DNA of 64,000 nt from Candidatus Poribacteria bacterium (GCA_965205015.1 OZ242029.1:2944001-3008000), one strand, 5' to 3'; shown: positions 13,375 through 39,264, counted from the stretch's first letter. Notes: generated by a model not told the origin, from the sequence alone. Made by a program: numbers and translations.

Positions 13375-13424
13375 GACACAATATAGCGAACGTGTCCTAC
13401 AAAAAATTCAGGAGGAGTTAGCGA

Positions 13425-14264
13425 ATGATGGAAACCTACAAAGGTTACGTAAATCCACAACTGGTTATCTCTGCTGAGGAATTGAAAGGCACACTCGACG
13501 ACCAAACCTACTGCATCGTCGATACGCGACCGACGTATGAATATATCCGCGGACACATCCCCGGTGCGCTTCATTTAGATCTGTTCGGTTTAAGCCTCAT
13601 TGATACTCGGAAAGAGACATACGATGCCTTTATGTGGATGATAGCATACCTATTTCAGCAACGCGGTCTTGACCCAGGTAAACCGATCGTATGGTATGAG
13701 GACATATCGGGAACGCGCGCCTCGCGGGGGTTTTGGTTTTGCGAGTACTTAGGGCATTCCGAAACCCGTCTATTGGATGGCGGTTTCAAGGCGTGGCTGT
13801 CGGCAGATGGACCTGTGAGTACTGCGGGGGCTGAACCCTCGGAGGTTCCGCCTTTTCCGATAAATGCGCAACACGATATACACATGGATGCCGATGTGAT
13901 CCGGGTCCTGCTAAACCGGGACGACTTTATTCCGCTTGATACGCGCACTGACGATGAACACTATGGTCGGGTTGCCCGCGCAGAGCGTGCGGGTGCTATT
14001 CCGGGTTCTATCCACATTGAATGGCTCAATAATCTTGACGAGGCGGGGGCATTCAAACCTGCTGACGACCTCCGGGAGATGTATGAAGCCGTCGGGATTA
14101 CACCGGAGAAACAGGTCATGTGCTACTGACAGGGGGGCTACCGCTCTTCCCAAGCCTATTTGGCGTTGCGGCTCTTGGGGTATCCAAAAGTGAGCAACTA
14201 CATAGGTTCCTGGAAAGAGTGGGGAGACCGGCTGGATTTGCCGGTCGAAATTCCAGAGGTTTAG
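13425..14264 (+). CDS. Tandem-domain rhodanese / sulfurtransferase, probable selenoprotein (Sec at 14127-14129)
   Basis: GHIPGA, LDGG, GAIPGS motifs; in-frame TGA gives CY-U-QGGYRS at the catalytic position; read-through yields [14 protein letters not shown] (rhodanese C-terminal signature) and TAG at 14262-14264. Confidence 0.88.
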
Positions 14265-15137: not shown

Positions 15138-16340
15138 TTAGAACAGAAACTGAGCATCCACTGTTTCGCCAGCATCTAACGTTGCACCGGATGGAATCGT
15201 GATTAATCCGTTTGCCAAAACGAGCGAATGCAGAATGCCTGAACCCTGGGGTCCTGTTGTTCCGGCAGTGTAATGTCCATTGGATTCTTTGAGAATTGCG
15301 CGCATATAGTTAACGCGTCCGTCTCTGTTGGTAACGGGTTCGGTTAAGGTGGCTTTGAAGGTCGGACGCAATAGATCGGTATGCCCTGCCATTTTGAGGA
15401 GCGCGGGTCGCACAAAAAGTTCAAACACAACGAGCGAAGAAACTGGGTTGCCGGGCAATCCAAAAATAGGTTTTCCGTCCGAGATACCGTAAGCCTGCGG
15501 TTTCCCGGGTTTCATTGCGACGCGCCAGAAGTTAACTTCGCCTAATCTCTCCAATACACTTTTCACATAATCGTGCTCACCCACTGAAACGCCGCCGCTT
15601 GTAATCAAAGCATCCGACTTGGCGAGTGCTGCACGAAAGATGCGCTCTATTTCTGCTTCATCGTCAGGCGCGATCCCCATATCAATCGGGATGCCGCCGG
15701 CTTCCTCGACCTGGGCATAGAGACCATAACGGTTGCTTTCTCGAATTTTTCCCGGTTCAAGCGATTCGCCGAGTAGCAGGAGTTCATCACCCGTTGAGAC
15801 AATCGCAACGGTGGGCTTGCGGTGGACGGTAACCGCTGGGCGATTCAGAGAGGCGAGCATTGAAACTTCCGGCGGACGGAGGTGTTTCCCGTTTCCCATG
15901 ACCTGCTGGCCCACCGCGACACTCTCACCCGTGAAACGAACGTTTCCGGTTTCGTCAATACTCTCAAAAATTTTGACTATATCCCCCTCTCGCTGGGTCA
16001 CCTCTTGCATCACAACCGCGTCGGCACCTGCAGGCATCATAGCACCCGTCATGATACGTGCTGCCTGTCCGGCTGTGACCTGTTTTGTTGGCGCATATCC
16101 CGCGGCAATTGTTTCAACGATTGTGAGAACCGCAGGTTCAGCTTCAGAGATGTTCTGAACATCCGCTGCGCGAACCGCGTACCCATCCATTGCTGAATTG
16201 TCGAACGGTGGAATATTCTCTTCGGCATGCAGTGTCTCTGCGAGAACATACCCCCCACAATTTAGAATTTCCCGCTTTTCCGTGGGTAAAACCGGAATCG
16301 TATTCAGCATCTGCTGGCGGGCTTCTTCAACACTTAGCAT
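15138..16340 (-). CDS. moeA: Molybdopterin molybdenumtransferase
   Basis: PPFDNSAMDGYA, IMTGA, STGDEL, TSGGVSVG, MKPGKP, LPGNPVS. Confidence 0.96.
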   Translation of the reverse strand: MLSVEEARQQMLNTIPVLPTEKREILNCGGYVLAETLHAEENIPPFDNSAMDGYAVRAADVQNISEAEPAVLTIVETIAAGYAPTKQVTAGQAARIMTGAMMPAGADAVVMQEVTQREGDIVKIFESIDETGNVRFTGESVAVGQQVMGNGKHLRPPEVSMLASLNRPAVTVHRKPTVAIVSTGDELLLLGESLEPGKIRESNRYGLYAQVEEAGGIPIDMGIAPDDEAEIERIFRAALAKSDALITSGGVSVGEHDYVKSVLERLGEVNFWRVAMKPGKPQAYGISDGKPIFGLPGNPVSSLVVFELFVRPALLKMAGHTDLLRPTFKATLTEPVTNRDGRVNYMRAILKESNGHYTAGTTGPQGSGILHSLVLANGLITIPSGATLDAGETVDAQFLF

Positions 16341-16530
16341 CTAATTTTTTCTCCTTTGCGTAATCTCATACTAAATATAATAAAGCATCACACCGATAAG
16401 TGCAAGCGCATCTTTTGCCACGCTTATATATTGCGCGATAACACAAATTTTAAAATATTTTTTTTGCCCAAAATCCCAATGATTTCGTGGCATATCGCGA
16501 TCTAATGACCCTCGTATTTTTCAAGTTCAC

Positions 16531-16559
16531 TTGACATCGACACAATCGTATGATATAAT
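16531..16559 (+). promoter_or_regulatory. Consensus sigma70 promoter of metal operon 1
   Basis: TTGACA-17 nt-TATAAT; near-duplicate at 22803-22831. Confidence 0.85.
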
Positions 16560-16613
16560 ATATCGCAAGTTTTTTTGGCAATCTCATTTTCGATAATAAC
16601 ACGGGCATAGGTT

Positions 16614-16973
16614 ATGAGAAACGGCATCGCTTTTCCAAACACGCTTGCCTTTAAGCGTAGTTTGAAAACCGGCATTTTAATAAGTTTATGTTGTTATGTT
16701 GTGCTGCTGAGTGCCATCGAACTCACGCACGATCATCACGAGCATGACGATCCTGACGAACGCTCCCATTCTGCGGAAGCCTGTGCAGCCTGTTTCTATT
16801 GCAGCCAACATCTCGGAGAGGAGGTTGAGTTCTTTGCACTCATCTTTTCATTCCTTCCGATTACGGTGCTTCCGTTTTATGAGGTTACCGTTTTCCTTCC
16901 TTTAAGACTCATCACGAACACGCGCAGTCGTGCCCCACCTGTATTCTCCAATGAACTTCCAGATTTTGTCTGA
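16614..16973 (+). CDS. DUF2946/CruR-like leader protein with His-rich tract, CxxCxxC and RAPP arrest motif
   Basis: Hydrophobic N-terminal segment, HDHHEH, CAACFYC, C-terminal TRSRAPP; paralogue of identical length at 22888. Confidence 0.8.
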   Translation: MRNGIAFPNTLAFKRSLKTGILISLCCYVVLLSAIELTHDHHEHDDPDERSHSAEACAACFYCSQHLGEEVEFFALIFSFLPITVLPFYEVTVFLPLRLITNTRSRAPPVFSNELPDFV

Positions 16974-17066
16974 AGACAAAATCTTTTTCTATTTTATGTT
17001 GCTATGTTGTCCAAAGGGTTAGGGAGTACTTGCACTCGTCCTCCATTTGGGTACCTATGCTTTAAG

Positions 17067-17145
17067 GGTTATCAGTTAAAAGAGGGTGTTTTTACTTGGG
17101 GCGTTCCCTTGTTAAACGAAAACCTCTTAACCTTAACTATCAACT
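17067..17145. repeat. Heptamer-flanked palindromic repeat with a 21-nt insert
   Basis: GTTATCAGTTAAAAGAGG...CCTCTTAAC..AACTATCAACT; insert at 17088-17108. Confidence 0.65.
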
Positions 17146-17337
17146 CGTGCTTTAACACTTATAACGGAGGATTTTTGTTTGCGTGTTTCTGTAGATTTCT
17201 TCAGGTTGATGGTTAAAACCGACGACTGATAACTGAAAACCATTTAAGTTCATTTTACAAAGTAAGAGGGCTTTAGAAAGCCCACACGCGGCTTTTTTCC
17301 CGCCGTGTGCCATCAGATATATATATAGGAGAATACA

Positions 17338-17979
17338 ATGCTTACGCGCTTTGTAGGACAAGATCTTTCTGTTACCATTTCTCACTTAATGTTACTTGTT
17401 TTTGTTGCCATCCTTCCGTGTATTGGCGGTTGTGGTGAAGATGACAACCCTATCATTGATGATGACCATGACCACGAACACGAAGCGGATGCACCCCTTC
17501 ACGCTGATGCCGACGGCTTTAACCTGGAAATCAATGGAGATGTGGTCTATCATCAACATCAAGGCACCCATGAAGGTGGTCTCACCGTTGGCGTTGGTGA
17601 AGAGATTCAGGTCGATGTACATTTTATTGACGCGAACGAAGCGGAACTCCATCTCGATGAAGTAGCGCCCCCGCCGGATGGAGAGGACGACCATGGAGAG
17701 GACGACCATGGACATGGCGGAGCGGAATTCTTCAGTTTGGGTCTGTCGGGTTACGATTCCTCTATTATTAGGATCCATCTGGACGAAGAGGAACATGGTG
17801 AAGAAGAGGAACATGGTGAAGAAGAGGAACACGAAGAGGAACACGAAGAACACGGTGACGCGTTACCGTTTGGACTCGAAGGATTGAAAGCAGGAAAAAC
17901 GGAAATCAAACTGCAACTGCTTCACGGGAATCATCCGGATTTCACGGCGGCACTTCTGATACCGGTGACTGTCCAATAA
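17338..17979 (+). CDS. His/Glu-rich putative metal-binding lipoprotein
   Basis: AGGAG RBS; lipobox IGG-C; DHDHEH, GEDDH x2, EEEHGE repeats; C-terminal 'LLHGNHPDF'. Confidence 0.8.
   Translation: MLTRFVGQDLSVTISHLMLLVFVAILPCIGGCGEDDNPIIDDDHDHEHEADAPLHADADGFNLEINGDVVYHQHQGTHEGGLTVGVGEEIQVDVHFIDANEAELHLDEVAPPPDGEDDHGEDDHGHGGAEFFSLGLSGYDSSIIRIHLDEEEHGEEEEHGEEEEHEEEHEEHGDALPFGLEGLKAGKTEIKLQLLHGNHPDFTAALLIPVTVQ
17785..17856 (+). repeat. Coding tandem repeat (18-nt and 12-nt units, EEEHGE/EEEH)
   Basis: GAAGAGGAACATGGTGAA x2 followed by GAAGAGGAACAC x2; also a 15-nt repeat x2 at 17680-17709. Confidence 0.85.
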
Positions 17980-17991
17980 GGGGAGAGGTCC

Positions 17992-20352
17992 ATGTTAGGC
18001 ATTTATAGAGGACTTACGCGGTCCCCTTGTAGGTGCGGTTTCAAACCGCACCTACCGCGTGGGGGTATGCGGAATTCTGCGATTTCGCGTGAGTCCTGTT
18101 ATAGGGGTCTGCTGAGGTCTCATCGGATAGGGGCACTTTTTAAGGGGGTCTGTCTATGTATGTTGATGTTTGGAGCGGTAAGTCTGCCCTACTGTTATGG
18201 ACGGGGACATAGTGCTCAAAACCGACTGCATTCCTTGGAAGGTGAAGTTGTCGAAAAGCTGAGGCATGCCCAACTCGGTGCAGTTACCGTCCGTCTGAAG
18301 GGACTGAAAGAAAGTGTCCGGACGGATACAAGCGGTCGGTTTAAGTTCGACGCAGTGCCGGAAGGACAGCAGACGCTTCAGTTCCTGAAGGTCGGTTATC
18401 AACTGTTTGAACAAGTCGTTGATGTCAATGCCGCCACACCTTATCTCAAGATTGAATTGGCGGCGTTGCCGTTTCAACTGAACACCATCAAAGTCTACGG
18501 TTCAAATCGCTATCTGTCACAGTTTGAGGAAACAACCGACTTAGCATTGGATGAGGAAGCGCTCCAAAGACGGTTAGGTATGACCTTAGCGAACACGTTG
18601 GCGAATGAGATCGGCATTTCACAACGAACGATGGGGCGGGCAATCGCTCGTCCTGTGATTCGTGGATTGGGCGGTGACAGGCTGCTCATTCTGGAAAACG
18701 GCGAACGGACAGGCGATAAATCCGCATCCAGTGCCGACCACGCTGTATCGATTGATCCGACGACGGCTGAAGGCGTTGAAATTACGCGGGGTCCCGCATC
18801 GCTCATTTACGGTTCAAGCACTCTGGGTGGGGTTATCAACGTCAAAAGCAATCACATACCCCAAATTCTACCGAGACGGCTCGATATGCACCTAACGTTC
18901 CAGGCGGAATCTGTTAACTCGGGTTTGACGGGAACAACAGGTTTTACGTTCCCAATTGGTGATTTTGCGGGGAATGTCGAATGGAATCGACGCCTTGCCT
19001 CTGACATACAAACGCCGGTGGGGGTCCTCGAAAACACTTCCCTTTCAAACGTCAATTTTTCAGGCGGTGCCTCGCTGATTAAGCCGTGGGGTTTCATCGG
19101 TGCCTCTGGAAGCCGGTATCGTTCAGATTACGGCGTTCCGGGTTCTCCAGAAGGACATATCAGTGGCGTTAACATCGCACTCGACAAGCAACGGTATGAA
19201 GGGCAGATGGAGTACCGCTTCAATACAAGGATGCTTGAAAAGGTAAGACTTCAGACTGCCTATACGCGTTATGAGCATCAAGAGTTGGAGTCGAACGGAA
19301 CACTGGGTGTGGAGTTCGGGGTGATAACCTACAACGTCTCAGCGATGGCGCACGTGTTCGACAACGCCGTTGCGGGTGTTTGGGGGGAATATCGAGACCA
19401 TGCCACAGGTGGGTTTTATTGGACACCGCACACCCGTGAGTTCGCGTTGGCGGGATTTTATCTCAACCAGCGTAACTTTGGCAAACTCACCTTACAGGGG
19501 GCTATCCGCTACGACGTTAGGCGTTCGGAACCGTTTCGACCTGGGGCAGTTGTCCGAGCCGGAACCGTCCAACGCCGCGATTTCAACGGTTTCTCCGGGG
19601 CTACCTCTGGAATTTACCATTGGACGGATAGGGTGAGCACTGGAGCGACCCTGATGAAAACGTTTCGCGCACCCGGTATTGAGGAACTTTTCAGCGATGG
19701 CCCCCACTTGGCTGTCTTTTCCTACGAAATCGGCAATGCAGAGCTGGAATCTGAGAATGGCTATGGCACTGAACTCTTCGTCAAATACGCAGACGAGAGG
19801 TTCAGACTCAATCTGGCACTTTTCAGGAATCAGATACAGAACTACCTCATTCCGACGCAGAGCGGTGAAAAGGAGTGGGGTAGCGGGGCAGCGGGATGGT
19901 TATGGATTTATCAATACATGGGACACGATGTTGTGATGGATGGGGCTGAAATCCAAATAGGGGGTGAGGTCCTCTCACAGGTCCATCTTCAGTTGAATAT
20001 GAGTTACATCCACGGAACTATTCAAACCAGTGGGCGACCGCTGGAGCGTATCCCACCCCTCAACGGTAAATTCGTCATCAGTTACACACCCGCCCCGTTG
20101 CATTTGCATGTTGCATCCCGTTTTTCAGGCAGCCAGACCCGACTCGGCGAATTTGAGGAACCGACAGACGGCTACCTCGTCTATGATATTGGAGGTTCTC
20201 TCAATTTTTCGTGGTGGCAGCTTGAGAACATGGTCGTTTTCGAGATTGAAAACCTCCTTGATACCGCCTACCGCGAACATTTGTCTCGCATCAAAGCGGT
20301 CATGCCGGAACCCGGACGGAACGCGAAGTTGCTGTATAAACTTAATTTTTGA
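17992..20352 (+). CDS. TonB-dependent receptor (probably zinc/metal; ZnuD-like)
   Basis: N-terminal carboxypeptidase-regulatory-like domain, plug RPVIRGLGGDR..DHAVSIDP..RGPASLIYGSSTLGGVINV, FRAPGIEELFSDGPH, NLLDTAYREHLS, terminal Phe. Confidence 0.92.
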   Translation: MLGIYRGLTRSPCRCGFKPHLPRGGMRNSAISRESCYRGLLRSHRIGALFKGVCLCMLMFGAVSLPYCYGRGHSAQNRLHSLEGEVVEKLRHAQLGAVTVRLKGLKESVRTDTSGRFKFDAVPEGQQTLQFLKVGYQLFEQVVDVNAATPYLKIELAALPFQLNTIKVYGSNRYLSQFEETTDLALDEEALQRRLGMTLANTLANEIGISQRTMGRAIARPVIRGLGGDRLLILENGERTGDKSASSADHAVSIDPTTAEGVEITRGPASLIYGSSTLGGVINVKSNHIPQILPRRLDMHLTFQAESVNSGLTGTTGFTFPIGDFAGNVEWNRRLASDIQTPVGVLENTSLSNVNFSGGASLIKPWGFIGASGSRYRSDYGVPGSPEGHISGVNIALDKQRYEGQMEYRFNTRMLEKVRLQTAYTRYEHQELESNGTLGVEFGVITYNVSAMAHVFDNAVAGVWGEYRDHATGGFYWTPHTREFALAGFYLNQRNFGKLTLQGAIRYDVRRSEPFRPGAVVRAGTVQRRDFNGFSGATSGIYHWTDRVSTGATLMKTFRAPGIEELFSDGPHLAVFSYEIGNAELESENGYGTELFVKYADERFRLNLALFRNQIQNYLIPTQSGEKEWGSGAAGWLWIYQYMGHDVVMDGAEIQIGGEVLSQVHLQLNMSYIHGTIQTSGRPLERIPPLNGKFVISYTPAPLHLHVASRFSGSQTRLGEFEEPTDGYLVYDIGGSLNFSWWQLENMVVFEIENLLDTAYREHLSRIKAVMPEPGRNAKLLYKLNF
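18009..18098. mobile_element. MITE-like element inserted in frame in TonB receptor 5' end
   Basis: TIRs AGGACTTACGC (18009-18019) / GCGTGAGTCCT (18087-18097); flanking direct repeat TTATAG (18003-18008, 18099-18104); internal hairpin GTAGGTGCGGTTT-C-AAACCGCACCTAC. Confidence 0.8.
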
Positions 20353-20418
20353 AACTGTAGGATGGGGACGATGGTTTTTATCATTCGTCCCCGTTCTCGA
20401 TTTTCTAAGGAGATAAAA

Positions 20419-20817
20419 TTGAAAAAATACTTTAACCACGAATTAGCGGATACGACTGGCGCGTGTCTCTCTGTAGCGTGCGCCGTCCATTGCCTTTCGA
20501 TGCCGCTTTTAGTCGCAGTTTTGCCTTTGATTGGGTTGGGCTTCCTTGCGAATGAAAGTGCTGAATTGGTGCTTATCCTTGTGGCAATTGGACTGGCAGT
20601 TGGGAGTTTAGCGTGGGGGCTTCGACACCACCGAAGTTGGCGCGCATTGTTGATACTGATAGTGGCATTGGCATTCATCGCCACCGCTCGAACAGCCGTT
20701 GAGGGCACATTTGAAGTGGTCTTCTATAGTATCGGTGCGGTTTTACTCGCCTCCGCACACCTTGTAAATCGGTACTTATGTAAGACCTGTCCAGCATGTG
20801 AGCCGGGAGATGTATAA
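20419..20817 (+). CDS. MerC-domain membrane protein
   Basis: TTG start after AAGGAG; 'DTTGACLSVACAVHCL..P', GLRHH, AHLVN; four TMs. Confidence 0.85.
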   Translation: MKKYFNHELADTTGACLSVACAVHCLSMPLLVAVLPLIGLGFLANESAELVLILVAIGLAVGSLAWGLRHHRSWRALLILIVALAFIATARTAVEGTFEVVFYSIGAVLLASAHLVNRYLCKTCPACEPGDV

Positions 20818-21763
20818 GATTATGCAGAGACTATACATTTCAGTGTGTTTAATAGGTATACTAATATGGTCTGGCTGTGATCCGAAGGGACAACCGGGGG
20901 CTGCCACGGACGATAAACTTCGCGTTGTTGCTACGATCGGTATGATTGCTGATGTTGTTAAAAATGTTGGCGGTCCGCGCGTTGAGGTGACCGGGATGGT
21001 AGCACCTGGCGTAGACCCACACTTTTACAACCCGACGCCTAAAGATGTTCAAAGGCTCGGTTCAGCACACATCATCTTCTATAACGGGCTGCACCTTGAA
21101 GCAAAAATGACGGACATCCTTGCGAAGATGTCGGAGGATACGCTGACGGTCGCCGTAACAGACGCTGTAGATCGGAGTCTACTGCTAACACCCGCAGAAT
21201 ACGAGGGACTCTACGATCCGCACTTATGGTTTGACGTGAAGCTTTGGATGCAAACGGTGGGAAAAGTGCGCGATGCCCTGAGTGAATTCGATGCCGATAA
21301 TACTGACCTGTACCGCAGCAACGCCGAACGCTACCTCACGAAACTCATGGAACTCGATGAATACGTAAAGTCGCAAGTGGAACGCGTGCCATCTCAGCAA
21401 CGCGTCCTTGTGACGGCGCACGACTGTTTTAACTACTTCGGAACGGCATACGGGTTTGAGGTACGCGGATTACAAGGTATTAGCACTGCGACAGAAGTCG
21501 GTATCGCTGATGTACAGGAATTGGCGACGTTTATTGCGGAGCGGGGTATCTCTGCTATTTTTGTAGAGTCATCCGTCTCTTCACGGAGTCTCGAAGCCGT
21601 GAAAGCCGCCGTGAAGTCAAAAGGATTTGATGTGAAGATCGGTGGTGTGCTCTTCACAGACGCTATGGGAAATGAGGGGACACCTGAAGGGACCTACATC
21701 GGGATGATCCGATATAATATTGATACGATTGTACATGCTTTGATTGAGAAATCGGAGTTATAA
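20798..21763 (+). CDS. Metal ABC transporter substrate-binding lipoprotein (TroA/MntA/ZnuA cluster A-I); start uncertain
   Basis: Lipobox WSG-C; GVDPH, YNGLHLE, DPHLWFD, TAHD.F.YF, TDA (His-His-His-Asp ligands). Confidence 0.92.
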   Translation: MSREMYKIMQRLYISVCLIGILIWSGCDPKGQPGAATDDKLRVVATIGMIADVVKNVGGPRVEVTGMVAPGVDPHFYNPTPKDVQRLGSAHIIFYNGLHLEAKMTDILAKMSEDTLTVAVTDAVDRSLLLTPAEYEGLYDPHLWFDVKLWMQTVGKVRDALSEFDADNTDLYRSNAERYLTKLMELDEYVKSQVERVPSQQRVLVTAHDCFNYFGTAYGFEVRGLQGISTATEVGIADVQELATFIAERGISAIFVESSVSSRSLEAVKAAVKSKGFDVKIGGVLFTDAMGNEGTPEGTYIGMIRYNIDTIVHALIEKSEL

Positions 21764-21925
21764 CCCGTTGGCTTCCAGCCAGCGGGTTTCTATCAAGGCT
21801 GGTCACGTGCTGCCTATTGGGATGGTCGAAATGATGTGGGTAAGCGGGTTTCAAGTGGTGTCTATTTCTATCGATTGTCCACACCCTCTTTCCATCAGAT
21901 GAAGCGGATGGTTATTTTGAAATAA
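21764..21925 (+). pseudogene. Orphan 3' remnant of a FlgD-Ig/secretion-tail gene
   Basis: Reads PVGFQPAGFYQGWSRAAYWDGRNDVGKRVSSGVYFYRLSTPSFHQMKRMVILK* with no start codon or RBS. Confidence 0.75.
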
Positions 21926-22002
21926 GTGCCGAGAAAATTCATCACTACGCTTGAATGTCATTGGGTAGTGATGAATGTGTATATTCGCGGGCGTGTAACA
22001 CA
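21897..22002 (+). repeat. About 105-bp direct repeat, copy 1 (contains 12-bp stem hairpin)
   Basis: Near-identical to 23362-23467; stem ATTCATCACTAC/GTAGTGATGAAT. Confidence 0.9.
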
Positions 22003-22167
22003 ACGGCTGATTTTATTGAGTTTGTCCGGTTGCCGCAAGCCGGCGTACTATAACTTTGACTCATGTTAAGAAATAGTGCAAAGAAACCGACAATTCTTGA
22101 CACCGCTTTTGAATTGCTTCGTGACCTTGAGGAGAAGTAGAAGCGGCTTCTTATGGAGGAATAAGTC

Positions 22168-22764
22168 ATGTCTGGCAGAACTGGCAACGAATCTGCGCGT
22201 TGGTCAGGTGCATTGAACAAGGTCAGGAAGATCGGGACGACGCTGTTGGACCAACAGTTGTGGTGTTGGGGACAGGACATTCGCCGGACAGGCGGAAATG
22301 CTTTGCTCGCCTACGGTTTTACCAAACATCGACCGCTGGAAGGCAAGCACGGAAGTACCGCTTATGAGTGGCGTGGCTCTGGCAGAAGCCGAGTTATTTT
22401 ATGGGGATTCGGGTTTTTCTATGGCGATGGGGACCGAGGCGGACTTTTCTTGCAGCGTTACAAATTCGCGCCCAAACAGACGGCAGCGGTCGATTTTTCG
22501 TTGCCCATATGGAAACCAGAGCAACTCCCTGAGCTTACGCATCCACGTGATGTGGAAGCGTGGGGTCGCGTTTTCAGCTTGCTCACTCAAGGTCTCGCAT
22601 GGATAGGCGACTACGAGCGGTGGATTATTTCTGAATACGGACTTGACTATCGCCAACGGTGTACTGACGCATGGAAGAAGAAATGTATTCCGGCACACGA
22701 GATGGCTGCAAAGTGGCATGAACTCGTCGAATACTTGCTTTCACAGCCCGGAAGCGATTGGTAA
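22168..22764 (+). CDS. Hypothetical protein (Trp/Gly-rich, 198 aa)
   Basis: GGAGGA RBS, ATG start, protein-like composition; no recognised motif. Confidence 0.65.
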   Translation: MSGRTGNESARWSGALNKVRKIGTTLLDQQLWCWGQDIRRTGGNALLAYGFTKHRPLEGKHGSTAYEWRGSGRSRVILWGFGFFYGDGDRGGLFLQRYKFAPKQTAAVDFSLPIWKPEQLPELTHPRDVEAWGRVFSLLTQGLAWIGDYERWIISEYGLDYRQRCTDAWKKKCIPAHEMAAKWHELVEYLLSQPGSDW

Positions 22765-22802
22765 ACATAAGGAATAATCCGAATCAACTTTTTAAGTTCT
22801 AT

Positions 22803-22831
22803 TTGACATTGACACAATCGCGTGCTATAAT
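22803..22831 (+). promoter_or_regulatory. Consensus sigma70 promoter of metal operon 2
   Basis: TTGACA-17 nt-TATAAT with extended -10 TG; duplicate of 16531-16559. Confidence 0.85.
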
Positions 22832-22887
22832 TTATCGCAAGTTTATTGGCACTCATTTTTTTTAATCATAACCATAGGTTCTGGTGT

Positions 22888-23247
22888 ATGAGAAACGGCA
22901 CAACTTTTCCCAACAAGTTAATATTTGGGCTTAGTTTGAAAATCTGTGTTTTAACAGGTTTATGTTGTTACGTCGTGCTGCTGGGTATTATCGGACTGGC
23001 ACACGATCATGACGAACATGCCCATTGCAAGGAACATGCCCATTGCAAGGATACCTGCGCAGCCTGTTCCTTTTGCAGCCAGCACGTCGGTGTCGAGATT
23101 GAATCCTTTGCTCTCAACGCGCCGTTCTTTTTTCATACTATACTCCGACTTTATGAAGACACTGTTATCCCTCTAAAACTGGTCATCCACACGCGAAGTC
23201 GTGCCCCACCTGTATTCTCCACTGAACTCGCAAATTATGCCTTTTAA
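22888..23247 (+). CDS. Second DUF2946/CruR-like RAPP leader protein
   Basis: MRNG start matches copy 1; HDHDEHAHCKEHAHCK, CAACSFC, TRSRAPPVFS; 18-nt perfect tandem repeat at 23014-23049. Confidence 0.8.
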   Translation: MRNGTTFPNKLIFGLSLKICVLTGLCCYVVLLGIIGLAHDHDEHAHCKEHAHCKDTCAACSFCSQHVGVEIESFALNAPFFFHTILRLYEDTVIPLKLVIHTRSRAPPVFSTELANYAF

Positions 23248-23361
23248 AGGCAGATTTTGTTTTTCCTTTATATCCTTGATTGTACAAAGATCGCGGGGGT
23301 ACCTATGACGGGTCCCGCGCTTTGTACACCGCTGCTTTGGAACGTATCGTAGCGTTTCTGT

Positions 23362-23467
23362 AGATGAAGCGGATGGTTATTTTGAAATAAGTGTCGAGAA
23401 AATTCATCACTACGCTTGAATGTCATTGGATGGTGATGAATGTGTATATTCGCAGGAGTGTAACACA
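23362..23467 (+). repeat. About 105-bp direct repeat, copy 2
   Basis: Near-identical to 21897-22002. Confidence 0.9.
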
Positions 23468-23479
23468 CAGGAGAAAGGT

Positions 23480-23890
23480 ATGAGCGCAGATAGAATCGAA
23501 TCGTCGTCCAAGCTAGCATCAAAACGGCGCGTCTTAATGCATATACTGGTCTGTAACGGTTGTTGTTGTGGCGTGACAGAGAAACGGAAACCGCCTGTAC
23601 CGGTCGAGTGGCTCATACAGGAGTGGCGGAACAGACGACTGGCCTCTTCAATAACATTGACAATCAGCGCAGGCTGCCTTGGGCCATGCGATCTCGCAAA
23701 TGTCATCTGTATCACATCACCGGACGGTGTCGTGTGGTTAGGACAGATAGAACTCCATCTACACTATGAGCGACTCGTGGATTGGGCGGAAGCCGTGGCG
23801 CGAACAGATGCGCTACTTCCGTTGCCTTCAGCCTTTGAGAGTCACCGTTTTGATCGGTTTCGATCTTCCTACACACCTTCCACAGAATAG
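23480..23890 (+). CDS. Thioredoxin-like (2Fe-2S) ferredoxin-domain protein with CNGCCCG motif
   Basis: ATG after AGGAG; LVCNGCCCG and GCLGPC..ANV motifs. Confidence 0.7.
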   Translation: MSADRIESSSKLASKRRVLMHILVCNGCCCGVTEKRKPPVPVEWLIQEWRNRRLASSITLTISAGCLGPCDLANVICITSPDGVVWLGQIELHLHYERLVDWAEAVARTDALLPLPSAFESHRFDRFRSSYTPSTE

Positions 23891-23960
23891 AGACCGCGGA
23901 CTTGAGAAAAATCTGGTCAAAATCGTGTGCGATGACCGATTCGTGGCGAGATTTCAGATA

Positions 23961-24079
23961 TTATAGTAAAGTTTAGAATTAATTAGACACTTTAAAGAGG
24001 CGAGGATACAATCCTCGCCAGCGGCGGAGAGGATTGTTTCGCTAAGCAACTGTCTCCATATTTTTCGACTTTACTATAA
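23961..24079. mobile_element. MITE-like element with TA-flanked ends
   Basis: TTATAGTAAAGT (23961-23972) / ACTTTACTATAA (24068-24079) perfect inverted ends; internal hairpin GGCGAGGAT-ACA-ATCCTCGCC. Confidence 0.7.
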
Positions 24080-24116
24080 AACAGCATCATATACGAGGAG
24101 AGGAGGCCATACAACA

Positions 24117-24377
24117 GTGCTGAAATTTTTCAATTTGCAAAAAGAGAGTGACCCACAGCAACTCGTCCAAGTCAAATCGTGGGTCTCTGAAGTCTTTGAT
24201 CTATCAGAAGACGTCTCCGTGATGATTACTCAGTTGCAATGCACCGAAGAAGGCTGCCCGCCTATTGAAACGGTCATTGCAATCATGGAAACGCCGGGAA
24301 AACCCCGGCAATACAAGATTCACAAACCGTTGGCGGAGGTGAAGCAGACGGACATCGTTAGCTTGACCGCTGGCTAA
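24117..24377 (+). CDS. Small conserved-looking protein with C-x4-CPP-x-ETVI motif
   Basis: GGAGG RBS, GTG start; CTEEGCPPIETVI; directly upstream of the COG0523 gene. Confidence 0.7.
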   Translation: MLKFFNLQKESDPQQLVQVKSWVSEVFDLSEDVSVMITQLQCTEEGCPPIETVIAIMETPGKPRQYKIHKPLAEVKQTDIVSLTAG

Positions 24378-24396
24378 ATTCAACAAGGAGAGACAG

Positions 24397-25749
24397 ATGA
24401 ACACAGCCATGCTAAACAATCAGGTCCCCGTTACCGTGTTGACGGGCTTTTTAGGGTCTGGTAAAACCACACTTCTCAACCGTATTCTCACCGAAAACCA
24501 TGGCAAACGTATCGCCGTCATCGAAAACGAGTTTGGCGAGATCGGCGTCGATAATGATTTGGTCATCGGTGCCGAAGAAGAGATTTTCGAGATGAACAAT
24601 GGTTGCATCTGCTGCACGGTGCGCGGTGATCTCATCCGTATTTTGGGGAATCTGATGAAGCGTCGCGATAAGTTCGACTACATCATGGTCGAAACCACAG
24701 GGCTTGCGGACCCCGGGCCAGTTGCGCAGACGTTCTTCATGGATACCGAAATGAAGGAGAAACTGCAACTGGATTCCGTCACGACGCTGGTTGATGCCAA
24801 ACACATCTGGCAGCACATCGATGACAGCGACGAGGCGCGTGAACAGATTGCCTTTGCCGATGTTATTTTGTTGAACAAGATTGACCTTGTGACCGAGGGA
24901 GAGTTAGATCAACTGGAAGGTAGAATTCGCAGCATGAACAGTGCGGCGAAGATTTATCGAACGAAAGACGCCGTGGTTGAAATGGACAAGATTCTCAATG
25001 TCGGCGGATTCGATCTGGACCGGGCGATGGAGGTTGACCCACAGTTTATGGAACCGGAGTATCCCTTTGAATGGGCTGGTGTTTATAACCTGTCGTCAGG
25101 CACGCATGAACTGGTGCTTCAAGAAGGTCCTGACCCGACGATGAAAGTCGCGTTGGTGCCCGTAAGTGCGTCAACCGATGAGGCTTTGAATGCGGCTGTT
25201 GAACCGGTCGTTATGGTTTTCTCCGATGATGCGCATGAACTTTCGGCGGGAGGCACGCTTCAACCGAGCGGACAGCTCATTGAATTGAATCTCACAGCGG
25301 ACGAATTACGCTTTGACGTGCAGATCGGCCGCTCCGGTGCTTACGCGCTGTTTACCGAGCATCACCCCGACGAATTTCAAGCACAACTCTTTGGCAGCGG
25401 TGCCCCTGTTAAGCCCGTTGTTGAACGCGAATTTAAGCCAGACCACGAACATGATGACGAAGTCACATCGGTCGGCATCACAACCCCCGGCGATCTCGAC
25501 CCCAACCGGTTGGACGATTGGATTAGCGATCTGCTTCTGACAAAAGGTGTCGACATCTTCCGCATGAAAGGTATTCTGAGCATCAAGGGTCAGCCAAACC
25601 GATTCGTCTTCCAAGGTGTTCATATGCTCTTTGACGGTCGCCCTGACCGCCCGTGGGGTGGTGAACCGCGCTACAATAGCCTCATCTTCATCGGGCGCAA
25701 CCTTGACCGGACCGAATTGACTGAGGGGTTTGAAGCATGTCTCGCTTGA
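24397..25749 (+). CDS. COG0523 / CobW-family G3E GTPase metallochaperone
   Basis: GFLGSGKTT, NEFGE, GCICCTVR (CxCC), ETTGLADP, NKID, HEHD, CobW_C domain RMKG..FQGVH..FIGR. Confidence 0.95.
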   Translation: MNTAMLNNQVPVTVLTGFLGSGKTTLLNRILTENHGKRIAVIENEFGEIGVDNDLVIGAEEEIFEMNNGCICCTVRGDLIRILGNLMKRRDKFDYIMVETTGLADPGPVAQTFFMDTEMKEKLQLDSVTTLVDAKHIWQHIDDSDEAREQIAFADVILLNKIDLVTEGELDQLEGRIRSMNSAAKIYRTKDAVVEMDKILNVGGFDLDRAMEVDPQFMEPEYPFEWAGVYNLSSGTHELVLQEGPDPTMKVALVPVSASTDEALNAAVEPVVMVFSDDAHELSAGGTLQPSGQLIELNLTADELRFDVQIGRSGAYALFTEHHPDEFQAQLFGSGAPVKPVVEREFKPDHEHDDEVTSVGITTPGDLDPNRLDDWISDLLLTKGVDIFRMKGILSIKGQPNRFVFQGVHMLFDGRPDRPWGGEPRYNSLIFIGRNLDRTELTEGFEACLA

Positions 25750-26792
25750 ACGATCTGAGGAGCCGCTTTGTCCAGCCCTCTCAACTGCGCGAAAATTGGA
25801 CCGCAACCATCAGCGACCACGTCATTGATCTGGCGTGGTCCCCTGATGGGAGATACATCGCTGCCGCGTCGGTTCTCGGTCCGGTGACAATTTTTGAAGG
25901 TCGTCGTCGAGCGGTTATCCATGCCTTTGAAGGGCATGAATTCGGCACAATGTCAATCGCGTGGCGTCCAGACAGCAAGGTGCTTGCAAGCGCAGGGCAA
26001 GATGGGAAAATTCGGTTGTGGGATGTGACAAGTGGCGAAGCGACCCATTCGCTTGACGGGGGTGCAGCATGGGTTGAGCACCTGGCTTGGAGTGGCGGCA
26101 AAAGACCGATACTCGTCTCTGCCGCGGGGCGTAAGTTGAAACTCTGGAACGCTATCGGCGATCTTGTTCGCGAATATCCCGACCATCAGAGCACGATTTC
26201 GGGTCTCCAATGGAGACCGCGTGTAAGGCAACTTGCCTCGATTGCCTACGGTGGCGTCACACTGTGGGACCCGCAACAGTCGGAAGCCGTCCGCCGATTG
26301 GAATGGAAAGGCTCATCACTGGTGGTTGCGTGGAGCCCTGACGGCAAATACATCGCCACCGGAGATCAAGATTCGACCGTACATTGCTGGATTATGTCTA
26401 CCGGTGACGACTTGCAAATGTCTGGCTATCCGACGAAAGTGCGAGAACTCTCGTGGGATGCCACGAGTCGATACTTGGCTACGGGCGGCGGTCAGGAAGT
26501 TACGGTGTGGGATTGTTCCGGTCGCGGACCCGCCGGTACCAAACCCATTACGCTTTCCGGGCATCAGGATTTTCTCAGCGTTGTGTGTTTTCAACATCGC
26601 GGAAAACTGCTGGCCTCAGGCGGTGCCGACGGTCTGGTCTACGTCTGGGAATTGCGCGGCAACCTCGGTTCTCAGGCGGTTCATAAAGCCGTTCTGACAG
26701 CAGGGGTCACAAATCTCGTTTGGGCACCGAATGACCAGTATATTGCTGTTGGTGACGAGTCGGGTGGGGTGAGCGTTTTTTCGATAAGTTAA
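25737..26792 (+). CDS. WD40-repeat beta-propeller protein
   Basis: Repeated WSPDG..LAS.G.DG..LWD units; overlaps the COG0523 stop. Confidence 0.92.
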   Translation: MSRLNDLRSRFVQPSQLRENWTATISDHVIDLAWSPDGRYIAAASVLGPVTIFEGRRRAVIHAFEGHEFGTMSIAWRPDSKVLASAGQDGKIRLWDVTSGEATHSLDGGAAWVEHLAWSGGKRPILVSAAGRKLKLWNAIGDLVREYPDHQSTISGLQWRPRVRQLASIAYGGVTLWDPQQSEAVRRLEWKGSSLVVAWSPDGKYIATGDQDSTVHCWIMSTGDDLQMSGYPTKVRELSWDATSRYLATGGGQEVTVWDCSGRGPAGTKPITLSGHQDFLSVVCFQHRGKLLASGGADGLVYVWELRGNLGSQAVHKAVLTAGVTNLVWAPNDQYIAVGDESGGVSVFSIS

Positions 26793-26845
26793 AGTTCAAC
26801 ATTAACTGTTCAATACTGTGGTGTTGCGTCCAAGTCCTCAATGCC

Positions 26846-28303
26846 TCACTTGAGATCACATTTCAGAAAGGACAACTGCGCTGCAGTAAAGAACAGGACA
26901 TTAAAAAGAATCAGGAGTGCGACAGGAAAAATTACACTTTGATACGAGATATGTTCTTTAAACCTTGGCACAACATTCGGATCTACCGGTTTTTGAGACA
27001 ATCCCTCCCGCACCGGATAGATATGTAAGCTATCTGGATCGTTTCTATCCTCCGTTTTGATGAAATCTATAAATGTGTCTCTATAACGGCGCACCTGTTT
27101 AACGAAATCCATATAACTGACGATTCCGGTGTTCGCGAGTCCTTCCATGGCGTATTGGAAACAGACCGTTGGAGAGATTTGGGTGAGTTCGCGGGCGAGT
27201 TGCACCTGCCGCAATTGCTGATCTACACGTGCATCTGCTATGTGAGTTCTCGTTTCAGACCTTCTTCTGAAGTAGGTCGCCCATTGCCGCGTTGCTGATG
27301 GATTGTCGACGGAAGGGGCTTCACTGAGTTTTGTTACTTCCAGCATTTCCCTCGGTTGAAATTCATCCTCTATATTTGCTAATTGCAAGCGTTTTTCCGC
27401 GGATATTCTTTCTATTGATGGGATCGGATCAAGTGTGCCGATGAAGAGGCCAAGTAGACTCGGGAAGATAAATGCTAAACAGACCCAAGTTAGCAATAAC
27501 CACACTAAACTGGTGATGGCATTTGAGACGCGACTTGAAAAAAACAGTCCCAAAAAAATGAAGATAGAAATATGCAACGCGAAGAGCCCGATCATTCCTA
27601 AAATCCGAAGCCAACTGCCTGAATTAAAAGGAATGCTCCGTGACAGGTAGATGGTGAGAAGATTCATGAGGACTCCAATCAGGAGTGGGACGATGAGGGT
27701 TGCAAATGTCCCTAAGTATTTTGCGAATAGTACCTGCCCACGAGAGATTGGGTTGGCCATCATGAGACGGAGTGTTCCCCGAGCGCGTTCCCCAGCGATG
27801 GCATCGAAAGTGAATAAAATGACAAAGAAACTCATGAAGACACCGATAAATACCCAATCAATCTTGATGCGCGTAGGTGCGTCCCCGCCATGATTTGAGG
27901 GTAGATATTCTAAGGACCACAACTCCCGCCACCTATAGTCTTCAACCACACCCCCGTCGTATCCGCTACGTCCCCCGCGTGCGCCTGCGATTGTGATAGA
28001 ACGGGGTATGAAGGCATCAGCACCATCGGCACAGAACTTCAACTGCGTCGGATACTTGGATATCTCCGCGGGTCCGACCATTGCCAACTCTCCTAAACCT
28101 TTGGCAGCGTATTCTTCAATATGAGATAACCCTTGGGTCACGTTGCGGGTATAATCACGTATTTCCGCTGTATACCCCTCATCGCCGAAGCCATATATGA
28201 GGGCATTGGCGATCATCAAGATGGGTAGAAGGAGTAACATCAAGACGAACCGCAGCGTTGTGAGATTCTGATATATCTCTTTTTTTGCAATGTGCCAAAT
28301 CAT
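26846..28303 (-). CDS. ABC-2 type transporter permease (type B of pair 1)
   Basis: MIWHIAKKE, FTFDAIAGERARGTLRLMMANP, ISP motif, large extracytoplasmic loops. Confidence 0.85.
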   Translation of the reverse strand: MIWHIAKKEIYQNLTTLRFVLMLLLLPILMIANALIYGFGDEGYTAEIRDYTRNVTQGLSHIEEYAAKGLGELAMVGPAEISKYPTQLKFCADGADAFIPRSITIAGARGGRSGYDGGVVEDYRWRELWSLEYLPSNHGGDAPTRIKIDWVFIGVFMSFFVILFTFDAIAGERARGTLRLMMANPISRGQVLFAKYLGTFATLIVPLLIGVLMNLLTIYLSRSIPFNSGSWLRILGMIGLFALHISIFIFLGLFFSSRVSNAITSLVWLLLTWVCLAFIFPSLLGLFIGTLDPIPSIERISAEKRLQLANIEDEFQPREMLEVTKLSEAPSVDNPSATRQWATYFRRRSETRTHIADARVDQQLRQVQLARELTQISPTVCFQYAMEGLANTGIVSYMDFVKQVRRYRDTFIDFIKTEDRNDPDSLHIYPVREGLSQKPVDPNVVPRFKEHISYQSVIFPVALLILFNVLFFTAAQLSFLKCDLK

Positions 28304-28306
28304 TTT

Positions 28307-28400
28307 TAGTCGTTGTCAGTTGTCAGTTATCGGTTGTCGGTTACAGGAAGATTCTCGTCTAACTGAAAGGGTTTTCGCAGAAAACCCGTACTGATAAGCC
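28307..28400. repeat. Heptamer-flanked palindromic intergenic repeat
   Basis: GTTGTCA/GTTATCG/GTTGTCG x4 plus hairpin GGGTTTTC..GAAAACCC. Confidence 0.7.
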
Positions 28401-28406
28401 TCCTTT

Positions 28407-29912
28407 TCAATTCAGTTCATACCGAAGGAACGACACATACACGCCTATAAACAGGATGACATTCCACGCCAACAGGATCAGGATATCGCTTGATGCGCGG
28501 GAAAGACTCTGAAATAGAGAAGTACGCGGGTTCTGAAAAACAGGGAGATCTCTAAACTCCGCCGTCCCTTGATCGCTGGAAAGCCACGCTCTCGCGGAAA
28601 AGGCGTTTTTACCGGTGAGATAGTCGACAACTTGACGTTTATAACTCCTTGTGTGTTTAATAAAGTCTTGGTAACGCTCCCTGTCTGTATCGGTTATCGC
28701 GCCAACGGCAAATCGGTATGCGTCCGCGAAAGAAAATCGGGAGATATCTTTGGCGAACCGTCTGTTGCTTTCTTCAACGTCTTCTCTCTGTTTGAGGAGT
28801 GCTTCGGCTTGGTTTGCGTAGTCGATACGTAGCGGTTCTTGGTAGCCCAATACTTCCTGAAGTTTGGAGACATCCACGATGTGGATCGGTTTGAACTCAT
28901 AGAATTCACTAAAGCCAAGTTCTCCCGGTGAACTCATATCAATCAATGTTGACAAAGCACCATCGCCGATCAGAGAAATCGCGCTAAATGGGTATTTATA
29001 TCCCCATTTTTTCAGCAGGTAGGCATCCCGTTCTTCCTTGAAATCTTCCCATCTCTGCTCAATATGCTGCAGAATCTCCTTTTCAGCTTGTGGTTGATAG
29101 GGCGGGAATTTCATGACTGCGAAGGCTGCTATGTTAGAATGGACGATTGTTAGGATTCCCCAAATGAACATTGAAAGGATGAGCGTGGTGGTTGCTTCCT
29201 TTGTCCATACGGATAGGAGCATCCCTAAGAGGTAACAGGTTGACACGTACAATAGGGAAAGGAGGAGCACGGCAACGAGGCGTAACAGATCACGGCTATT
29301 GAAATCGGGCGTAGGAGAAGCGTAAGCGATAAGGAGTCCAACACTAAAACTAACGATCACAATCGGGAACAGGGATAACATGCCGCCGAGGTATTTCCCT
29401 ATCACGAGTGTGTCCTTGGGAATCGGATTGGATAACACTAATTTGAGTGTGCCGTCCTCGCGTTCCCCTGAAATCGTGTTGTAAGCGAATAGGATCGCCA
29501 ATGCACTGACGACAATTTTAAAGACGAAAATAACATCGATGGAAAGAAAGATAGAGAGGAACGGGTTGTCGGAGCCCTGTTTCTGTGCCTCTTTTTCCCA
29601 TATAGGTGTTGCGAGTTCGATACTCACCATATCCGCGCCGGATTTTTCCATGCCGACATTAAAGATGCTGAGCAGATTCGGTTTCCTGTGCGCTTTCGGA
29701 TTAATTTGGCTGTAGAGGTCCCACGTTCGCGTTTCTTCTTGATATTCCTGAAGGGCAACGTGATACGCTGCCAATCGCTTTTCGTAATCTGCAACCTGAA
29801 CAAAAACAGCGGCAGCCGTTGACATTAGACAGACAATAAAACCGATCATGAACCGGGCGGTCAGGACATTTGAGACGAATTCGCGCTGGACGATTAGCCA
29901 AAGTGTTGGCAC
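28407..29912 (-). CDS. ABC-2 type transporter permease (type A of pair 1); start uncertain
   Basis: REF..N..T.RF, PN.LSIFNVG, DNPF, FAYNTISGEREDGTLKL; GTG at 29912 aligns with paralogue starts. Confidence 0.85.
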   Translation of the reverse strand: MPTLWLIVQREFVSNVLTARFMIGFIVCLMSTAAAVFVQVADYEKRLAAYHVALQEYQEETRTWDLYSQINPKAHRKPNLLSIFNVGMEKSGADMVSIELATPIWEKEAQKQGSDNPFLSIFLSIDVIFVFKIVVSALAILFAYNTISGEREDGTLKLVLSNPIPKDTLVIGKYLGGMLSLFPIVIVSFSVGLLIAYASPTPDFNSRDLLRLVAVLLLSLLYVSTCYLLGMLLSVWTKEATTTLILSMFIWGILTIVHSNIAAFAVMKFPPYQPQAEKEILQHIEQRWEDFKEERDAYLLKKWGYKYPFSAISLIGDGALSTLIDMSSPGELGFSEFYEFKPIHIVDVSKLQEVLGYQEPLRIDYANQAEALLKQREDVEESNRRFAKDISRFSFADAYRFAVGAITDTDRERYQDFIKHTRSYKRQVVDYLTGKNAFSARAWLSSDQGTAEFRDLPVFQNPRTSLFQSLSRASSDILILLAWNVILFIGVYVSFLRYELN

Positions 29913-29991
29913 AGGTAATACCACAATTGTTGTTATAGTAGCAGGCACGCGCCGCGTGCCGTCGCATCATTATAGTGTGTTTCAGTCACGT

Positions 29992-33084: not shown

Positions 33085-33131
33085 CGGACACCTCTGGAAA
33101 AGAAAAGTTTATTTTTCTGCAGTCACACTTA

Positions 33132-34735: not shown

Positions 34736-34737
34736 TC

Positions 34738-39228: not shown

Positions 39229-39264
39229 GTGTTCCCTCCAATTCATAACAGTGGCTTGTGACCT

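Follow-up and report, generated by a model that had tools for sequence, protein, structure and literature searches.

What controls a row of putative metal-acquisition genes in an uncultivated sponge symbiont, when the row carries two small open reading frames (ORFs), each behind a perfect promoter and each ending close to the motif RAPP? This question is raised by positions 16,531 to 26,792 of a 64,000-nucleotide (nt) stretch of DNA from a Candidatus Poribacteria bacterium (GCA_965205015.1, OZ242029.1:2944001-3008000), which we call the window at its full length. We propose that each ORF, leader A and leader B, encodes a cis-acting nascent-chain metal sensor of the DUF2946 family, in which translational arrest at RAPP would gate an intrinsic terminator, that the metal is most likely zinc, and that the second leader is a later insertion. 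We hold this combined reading tentatively, at a probability of roughly 0.45; its mechanistic part is deduced from geometry and conservation.

The leader peptides and their family

The two leaders and their promoters are located as follows.
16531 to 16559, plus strand: promoter of leader A (TTGACA-17 nt-TATAAT, TG-extended -10, 12/12 match)
16614 to 16973, plus strand: leader A (hydrophobic stretch ~16668-16724, His tract 16728-16772, CxxC 16782-16793, RAPP 16929-16940, stop codon TGA 16971-16973)
22803 to 22831, plus strand: promoter of leader B (TTGACA-17 nt-TATAAT with TG before the -10, 12/12 match)
22888 to 23247, plus strand: leader B (CxxC 23056-23067, RAPP 23200-23211, stop codon TAA 23245-23247)

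ORF calling gives 119 amino acids (aa) for each leader; for leader B it reaches back to a TTG at 22846, while the conserved start is the ATG at 22888. The leaders are paralogous (66/118 identical residues, 56%, E 7e-45) and share a basic N-terminus, a hydrophobic stretch of ~18 residues (about residues 19-37), a His tract, C57-x2-C60 and, near the C-terminus, TRSRAPP. RAPP occupies residues 106-109 in leader A and 105-108 in leader B, 45 and 44 residues from CxxC, respectively. An earlier, sequence-only reading of this DNA had described the ORFs, both perfect promoters, the hydrophobic segment, the His tract and TRSRAPP, and each of them was recovered. From its longer motif, CAAC-x2-C, the CxxC part stands; the third Cys (position 63) is not conserved, Asn being the commonest residue there.

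The two leader promoters are the sole 12/12 matches among 12 promoter-like sites in 16300-27000. Hexamers, spacer and first transcribed bases of the leader A promoter are kept across the related loci described below, and in three related genomes the motif occurs at leader loci only, plus three one-mismatch matches elsewhere. A repressor regulon sharing the promoter motif, considered in an operator search, was rejected on this distribution, in which no regulon is seen.

DUF2946 (PF11162) is the sole Pfam match of the leaders, with 22.3 bits for leader A and 15.8 bits for leader B at a cut-off of 23.7, so that the suggested comparison with the hidden Markov model of this family returns a match, but leaves both window leaders under the gathering score. 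Relatives strengthen the assignment. A sequence search returned 115 homologues of 71-166 aa, from Candidatus Poribacteria wherever the source gives a name, and in an alignment of 47 homologues C57, C60, R106, A107, P108 and P109 are invariant (47/47). DUF2946 is matched at E<=0.1 by 33 of these 47 aligned relatives (best 1.3e-06) and is their only recurring relevant Pfam match; the homologue clusters P0006, P0026 and P0081 carry a precomputed PF11162 label. A profile search of 1.84 billion representatives returned only 32 clusters at E<=0.001. Among 24 of these more distant representatives CxxC is present in all and RAPP in 23, with RSPP in the remaining one, and an alignment of 22 distant representatives has both Cys of CxxC in 22/22 and HxH after the hydrophobic segment in nearly all. 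The leader profile found no match outside the leader locus in three related complete genomes.

A scan that took one genome from each species yielded 52 loci, from Poribacteria wherever named, whose gene order was derived by tblastn with the window proteins. RAPP is kept in all 61 leader copies of these loci and the window, a set that was partly selected for RAPP, as one of three search patterns contained it, and whose copies were all found under a filter of 43-47 residues between CxxC and RAPP. The conservation of RAPP in homologues, which the sequence-only reading had put forward as a check, thus extends to every Poribacteria leader copy examined. Codon choice at R106-S112 is 86-98% uniform, compared with 40-68% at G68, P79 and T84. 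On these grounds the leaders can be regarded as a divergent, His-tract-bearing subfamily of DUF2946, of the CruR/CutF type.

The closest parallel is CruR (Bp2923) of Bordetella pertussis (PMC9426467). CruR shares the exported-type N-terminus and the arrangement 'CxxC-45 residues-RAPP', and it is the first gene of its operon, with a C>G skew at the 3' end of the ORF, a long intergenic region and a TonB-dependent receptor downstream. The same operon layout occurs here, with an own promoter, a 365-nt gap and the receptor as the second gene downstream (47/52 loci), so that the likeness to CruR noticed earlier is well founded in motifs, spacing and gene order. The window leaders differ from CruR in scoring just under the Pfam cut-off, in the His tract before CxxC, in having 10-11 codons after RAPP instead of 3, in a hairpin with T-run that holds the stop codon in its loop, in downstream genes that point to Zn or Co rather than Cu, and in being present as two copies in one gene row. 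Moreover, the accessible text does not name Poribacteria among the synteny taxa of CruR (Proteobacteria and few Planctomycetes, Firmicutes and Deinococcus).

The arrest peptides of the ApdA/ApdP/RQH family likewise carry RAPP near the C-terminus behind an N-terminal localisation signal (PMC10987492). Those peptides, however, monitor export upstream of sec or yidC genes, whereas the window leaders have a metal-binding motif at a fixed distance from RAPP. A Sec- or YidC-monitoring function was rejected for the leaders: the genes downstream encode a lipoprotein, a receptor, a MerC-like protein and a binding protein, and secA, secDF and yidC are absent from them.

The hairpin behind RAPP and what may gate it

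Two successive hairpins follow each leader.
16961 to 16994, plus strand: hairpin 1A with T-run (10-bp stem 16961-16984, loop TGAA, T-run 16985-16994)
17010 to 17051, plus strand: hairpin 2A (weak alone, dG -11.8, z -0.8)
23230 to 23269, plus strand: hairpin 1B with T-run (hairpin 23230-23260, inner stem 23238-23252, T-run 23261-23269)
23281 to 23328, plus strand: hairpin 2B (dG -24.5 in a 61-nt fold and -23.8; z -3.1 and -4.3)

Hairpin 1 is interlocked with the end of the reading frame. The first three bases of loop TGAA in hairpin 1A are the leader A stop codon, and then comes TTTTTCTATTT; in hairpin 1B the leader B stop TAA lies at the loop, and then comes TTTTTCC. The T-rich tracts already noticed after both leaders are therefore real, and each follows a hairpin. 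Compared with shuffled sequences, hairpin 1A folds at -10.5 kcal/mol (z -3.1) and hairpin 1B at -10.6 (z -3.2). Both are kept in minimum-free-energy and centroid folds that include 80-110 nt of upstream RNA, and in folds of this extent no rival, antiterminator-like pairing was found.

The distance between RAPP and hairpin 1 is nearly constant. Counted from the first base of the RAPP Arg codon, the hairpin starts after 32 nt in leader A and 30 nt in leader B. A hairpin with T-run at an offset of 24-45 nt is present in 48 of 60 leader copies, and 44 of these 48 begin at 30-32 nt; the same criterion selects 125 of 1325 random windows of the same loci. In the hairpin 1 alignment 76.9% of cells pair, compared with 27-52% for slid partners, and pair 47-77 occurs as A-U (37 copies), G-C (13) or G-U (5), all pairs being counted on hand-drawn structures derived from the same sequences. 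In copies whose stop codon comes early, four codons past RAPP (L027, L029, the first copy of L032, and L050), the hairpin still lies 30-31 nt from RAPP; its position thus tracks RAPP and not the stop codon.

Both leaders therefore show the layout of an intrinsic attenuator, as far as sequence features define it: a stem-loop with a direct U-run, after the leader ORF and before the downstream genes. Hairpin 1 with its T-run is a terminator-like element that the sequence-only reading had not foreseen, and it makes it likely that the read-out is unlike those of CruR (Rho) and CutF (a stem-loop at a ribosome-binding site). Rfam returned only a sub-threshold CRISPR-repeat match (24004-24040) in 16000-27000, and no known riboswitch explains the intergenic regions.

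How could an arrest at RAPP act on such an element? In pyrBI attenuation, a translating ribosome occludes an intrinsic terminator within the leader ORF. There, as here, the leader frame runs through the terminator hairpin, and a ribosome close behind the polymerase prevents termination; the variable in pyrBI is polymerase pausing at low uridine triphosphate, whereas here it would be the arrest at RAPP. The 3' edge of a ribosome lies ~16 nt from its P-site codon. In toeprints of other RAPP peptides, the P site holds the third residue of the motif (PMC10987492). A ribosome arrested at this point, the first Pro codon of RAPP, would accordingly end ~22 nt past the Arg codon, 8-10 nt short of hairpin 1, which would then be free to fold behind the polymerase at the T-run and stop transcription before the lipoprotein gene (operon off). 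A released ribosome at the stop codon, on the other hand, would cover ~27-58 nt past the Arg codon, i.e., the whole of hairpin 1, and the polymerase would read through.

Metal binding by the His/Cys part of the emerging peptide would set how long the arrest lasts. At arrest, ~106 residues would have been made, and CxxC would lie 46-49, the His tract 53-67 residues away from the peptidyl-transferase centre. Both may thus lie just outside the tunnel, where an exported chain could meet periplasmic metal. Genes for uptake are expected to be expressed under metal scarcity, so in this model it is bound metal that has to stabilise the arrest. Metal would prolong it, as proposed for CutF, which is the opposite of the relief proposed for CruR.

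CutF of Rhodobacter capsulatus (10.1101/2022.11.11.516240, 10.1101/2025.02.05.636593) is likewise a small leader targeted to the Sec pathway, and it has a Cys motif as well as a proline motif near the C-terminus; a metal is proposed to prolong its stalling, which is the direction needed here, and it acts only in cis. It differs in its motifs (CxxxC and PPP instead of CxxC and RAPP), in its stem-loop, which masks the ribosome-binding site of a gene that follows after a short gap, where the window has gaps of 365 and 172 nt and a terminator-like hairpin, and in its target, a detoxifying oxidase and not an uptake system.

Hairpin 2 is a stronger stem-loop 20-30 nt past hairpin 1. It is present in 56 of 60 copies (median -16.6 kcal/mol, z<-2 in 38/56), without a T-run, and absent in L034 and L045-L047, which also lack the T-run of hairpin 1. 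Its outer stem, GTMCAAAG...CTTTGKAC, pairs in 86.4% of cells compared with at most 53% when slid, and its inner stems are variable and G/C-rich. The 11-mer GGGTACCTATG, which had been described as common to both leaders, does occur at 17049 and 23297, but in different places: in the loop of the second hairpin at leader B and 3' of that hairpin at leader A. From promoter to second hairpin the module measures ~560 nt, and at this small size it should lend itself to direct tests in E. coli or a cell-free system.

Several observations weigh against an arrest-gated terminator for zinc. A hairpin with T-run is missing from 12 of the 60 copies (L002, L010, the first copy of L011, L012, L013, L019, L024, L034, L035, L045, L046 and L047). 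The hairpin 1 stems are A/U-rich and weak (~-10 kcal/mol), with only 3 G-C pairs. RNAalifold gave no hairpin 1 on the 60-sequence alignment and neither hairpin on MAFFT alignments, and the covariation is modest, with 4 pairs changed on both sides, not above shuffles. The locus counts are not independent, because the loci are closely related. A distant relative, L066, which has the same leader-lipoprotein-receptor order, is without a terminator-like site; it is one of 3 loci from a metagenome scan, too few to judge how far the hairpin extends. The geometry of the mechanism rests on an assumed ribosome edge at ~+16 nt from the P site, and the conserved hairpin 2 has no role in the occlusion model. 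As to the arrest itself, stalling is absent from most RAPP-containing proteins in E. coli and B. subtilis, and it had yet to be demonstrated directly for CruR and CutF (PMC10987492). As to the metal, every match that points to zinc (ZnuD, AztC and ZigA, see below) lies under its curated cut-off, and by these cut-offs the genes do not form a Zur-type set.

The composition of the leader ends counts on the same side, since it suits a read-out of the CruR type. There, RAPP-arrested and queued ribosomes would hide a C-rich Rho-loading site, metal would relieve the arrest, and Rho would terminate transcription in the long intergenic region, with the hairpin serving as a pause site only. The C>G skew of -0.25 to -0.30 at 16860-16979 and of -0.37 to -0.44 at 23100-23219 resembles the C>G bubble of cruR, and the 365-nt intergenic region is long, as noted for cruR homologues (PMC9426467). 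Rho is found above cut-off in 3/3 related genomes, and the hairpin-less L066 also fits. Yet the region is A/T-rich overall (GC 0.33-0.50), with two structured elements directly after it, and Rho-dependent termination would leave both the T-run and the fixed distance between RAPP and hairpin unexplained. We consider this alternative unlikely, though it deserves to be taken seriously.

Downstream genes, metal and the second leader

The leaders head a conserved gene row; counts give the loci in which a gene lies downstream of a leader.
17338 to 17979, plus strand: HisLipo, a His/Asp/Glu-rich lipoprotein (no Pfam/NCBIfam match, only unnamed clusters in the ESM Atlas); 49/52 loci
17992 to 20352, plus strand: TonB-dependent receptor with N-terminal CarboxypepD_reg, plug and barrel domains; 47/52 loci
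20362 to 20817, plus strand: MerC-like inner-membrane protein with Cys motifs (PF03203, E 4e-23); 37/52 loci
20798 to 21763, plus strand: TroA-like (ZnuA family) substrate-binding lipoprotein (PF01297, E 9e-81); 28/52 loci
23420 to 23890, plus strand: orf156, Cys-rich (no Pfam match, DUF1636-like by language-model features only)
24117 to 24377, plus strand: orf86, a small conserved protein (85-95% identity in 21 loci, no family)
24397 to 25749, plus strand: COG0523 GTPase with cobW and CobW_C domains (PRK11537 249 bits, CobW 197, ZigA 192, all under cut-offs); 22/52 loci
25737 to 26792, plus strand: WD40 beta-propeller protein (start overlaps the COG0523 gene end, follows COG0523 in 21 loci); 21/52 loci

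Across the loci the order is leader, His-rich lipoprotein, TonB receptor, MerC-like protein, TroA-like binding protein, (orf156), orf86, COG0523, WD40. Domain matches bear out the identities first suggested for the receptor, the MerC-like protein, the ZnuA-family protein, the cobW/CobW_C protein and the WD40 protein, while Pfam and NCBIfam gave no family for the His-rich lipoprotein, orf156, orf86 and orf198, a further ORF introduced below. The three loci without the lipoprotein are two contig ends and L040, where only leader B is present, and two further loci end before the receptor gene. In 13 loci with at least 3 kb of further sequence the row ends at the receptor or the MerC-like gene, which marks lipoprotein and receptor as the invariant targets.

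The COG0523 GTPase is unusually long, at 450 aa with ~140 extra residues between the GTPase and CobW_C domains. Its pairing with the WD40 gene, kept in 21 loci, suggests a fixed partner protein for the metallochaperone. The protein orf86 carries a CTEEGCPP motif and is always encoded just upstream of COG0523.

Is the leader transcribed together with these genes? The gap between leader A and the lipoprotein gene measures 365 nt, and that after leader B 172 nt. No promoter-like site of at least 9/12 was found between leader A and the lipoprotein gene. RNA-library contigs extend from leader A past the two hairpins to the first part of the lipoprotein gene (e.g., 16655-17684, 16680-17511 and 16582-17523), which would fit one transcript, if weakly, as the contigs come from ~94-95% identical relatives, show no depth, RNA ends or strand, and may include DNA.

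These data also bear on the idea that the leaders are ordinary exported or membrane-anchored metal-binding proteins of CzcI/CopL type, each with its own promoter and terminator, with the downstream genes separate and RAPP kept for some reason other than arrest. A perfect promoter and a terminator-like site do bracket each small gene, the gap of 365 nt to the next gene is wide, CutF-like proteins without a proline motif exist, such as CzcI (10.1101/2022.11.11.516240), and the scarcity of stalling among RAPP proteins mentioned above (PMC10987492) agrees with it as well. Against it stand the invariance of RAPP and of its spacing of 44-45 residues from CxxC; moreover, the gap holds no promoter-like site, and wherever a locus reaches far enough, the lipoprotein-receptor pair accompanies the leader. 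The bridging RNA-library contigs, as weak evidence, and the cis action of the studied family members likewise speak for a leader. Separate, stand-alone proteins therefore seem to us very improbable.

The predicted metal of the system is most likely zinc, with cobalt, nickel or copper possible. The binding protein aligns with TroA (1TOA, E 2e-87) and has DPH, DPH, TAHD and TDA at the ligand positions, i.e., His/His/His/Asp, under the ligand numbering of TroA that we take to apply here. The third ligand position, His in the binding protein, is Glu in MntA and PsaA-type Mn rows ('TSEGAF'); three His and one Asp correspond to the TroA/ZnuA type and not to the His2-Glu-Asp of manganese proteins. 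The best NCBIfam match of the receptor is ZnuD with 178.9 bits (cut-off 950), and that of the binding protein is AztC with 218.6 bits (cut-off 350); the COG0523 GTPase reaches 192.1 bits against ZigA (cut-off 600). The specificity for Zn, Ni or Co instead of Cu that had been suggested at the outset is thus possible: the TroA-like ligands and the ZnuD and COG0523 names favour it, but the matches behind these two names stay under their cut-offs.

For cobalt there is a lead in orf156, which scores 0.95 in the ESM Atlas; 29 of its 30 nearest clusters share a DUF1636 set, carried by 17-26% of the members of the top three. In cobalamin gene clusters DUF1636 is found alongside cobW. Because orf156 resembles DUF1636, cobalt is a possible alternative.

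The metals associated with COG0523 proteins are Zn, Co or Fe, and not Cu. Copper would make the leaders a copper-specific sensor like CruR or CutF, and the operon an importer of copper or a copper chelate. Both studied DUF2946 members do respond to copper via their Cys motif, and the MerC-like protein and the leader Cys motifs would suit soft metals. The copper receptor model, however, gives the receptor only 53.7 bits, compared with 178.9 for ZnuD, the binding protein is TroA-like, and the family is, according to the CutF authors, not uniformly copper-specific (10.1101/2022.11.11.516240). By these sequence comparisons copper appears less likely than zinc, and a copper-specific switch is in our view quite improbable.

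As noted before, no Fur or Zur gene accompanies the row: among the 49 called ORFs of at least 90 aa in the window, none has a Fur-family match. Three related genomes have one Fur-family gene each, beside menaquinone and NifU genes, and they also have a separate binding-protein/ATPase/two-permease operon. With a single Fur-family gene per related genome, the leader switch may be the main control of the uptake system in this uncultivated sponge symbiont. The general statement that Poribacteria sense zinc or cobalt through a nascent leader instead of a Zur-type repressor, with a metal-held arrest at RAPP freeing a terminator 30 nt downstream and the switch duplicated in one operon, is one that we rate as improbable.

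Why does the window contain two leaders? The following features surround leader B.
21897 to 22002, plus strand: repeat D2 copy 1 (normally intergenic between the binding-protein gene and orf156; 95% identical to copy 2)
22168 to 22764, plus strand: orf198, part of the inserted segment (no family; in 10 loci)
23362 to 23467, plus strand: repeat D2 copy 2 (95% identical to 21897-22002)

Leader B and orf198 are flanked by this duplicated piece of the old intergenic region. In 19 loci one leader stands before the entire row through COG0523; two leaders are found in the window and in L001, L003, L008, L011, L023, L032 and L043, and leader B lies at the locus edge in L040 and L041. To judge from this distribution and the repeats, the second leader is a later, lineage-specific insertion that arrived together with orf198. 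The idea that one leader was designed for uptake and the other for allocation of the metal is not supported in the form first given, as the single leader of 19 loci heads the full row and the second is an insertion. The insertion would nevertheless give the distal genes (orf156, orf86, COG0523 and WD40) their own copy of the switch. In L005 (~12300-13430), orf198 follows the binding-protein gene without a second leader and with only a fragment of orf156, which may be an intermediate or a decayed form of the insertion.

Studies of DUF2946 leaders cover two cases only, both copper-responsive, apparently in opposite directions and with different read-outs. With the Poribacteria clade, an intrinsic terminator would join these as a third read-out, and the metal would be a different one, in a system linked to a COG0523 chaperone and a TroA-like protein. 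If the proposed reading is true, it would give DUF2946 its first switch for a non-copper metal and would be the first case of an arrest peptide gating an intrinsic terminator by ribosome occlusion, and the duplication within the operon would uncouple the uptake genes from the COG0523 chaperone genes. New in the present data are the phylum, a probable non-copper regulon with COG0523, the duplication in one operon and the candidate third read-out. Early-stop variants, hairpin-less copies and operons with one or two leaders provide natural experiments.

Published work leaves room for such a variant. The CutF authors name Ni and Co for His-only clusters, describe TonB-type neighbours as common and note that modes of action differ (10.1101/2022.11.11.516240), and a study of the Caulobacter Zur regulon reports two DUF2946 proteins, one beside a receptor and one beside czrCBA (PMC4176598). 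The word 'zinc' does not occur in the accessible text of PMC9426467, 10.1101/2022.11.11.516240 and 10.1101/2025.02.05.636593, whose supplementary tables may list such neighbours, and the listed DUF2946 papers showed no discussion of zinc for CruR or CutF either. Judged by title and abstract opening, none of the listed papers on RAPP, arrest peptides and terminators deals with an intrinsic terminator gated by a RAPP leader.

Other features of the window

Between orf156 and orf86, a 116-nt insert with inverted-repeat ends occupies 23962-24077 (arms 23961-23992 and 24048-24079). Relatives lack it at the corresponding intergenic site, RNA-library contigs join 23961 to 24078, and pieces similar to it occur elsewhere in L020 and L007, so that it looks like a small mobile repeat. 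It holds a 10/12 promoter-like site (23984-24012) and a sub-threshold match to CRISPR-DR31 (24004-24040).

Beyond the gene row, the minus strand carries three tandem units (26846-45267), each with an ABC-2 permease gene pair, several with DUF3526. Each unit also has a gene of ~900-1030 aa that fuses a sigma-factor N-terminus of extracytoplasmic-function type to a BNR/Sortilin-like or glycosylhydrolase-like C-terminal part.
29992 to 33084, minus strand: sigma-fusion gene
36421 to 39246, minus strand: sigma-fusion gene
39349 to 42075, minus strand: sigma-fusion gene

The Caulobacter Zur regulon includes ABC-2 transporter genes beside a TonB receptor (PMC4176598). A DDE transposase gene (PF01609) lies at 60249-61391. 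On the minus strand at 48751-50446, a RiboL-PSP HEPN protein adjoins a ParA/AAA_31 ATPase, and the two may form a defence or toxin-antitoxin-like pair.

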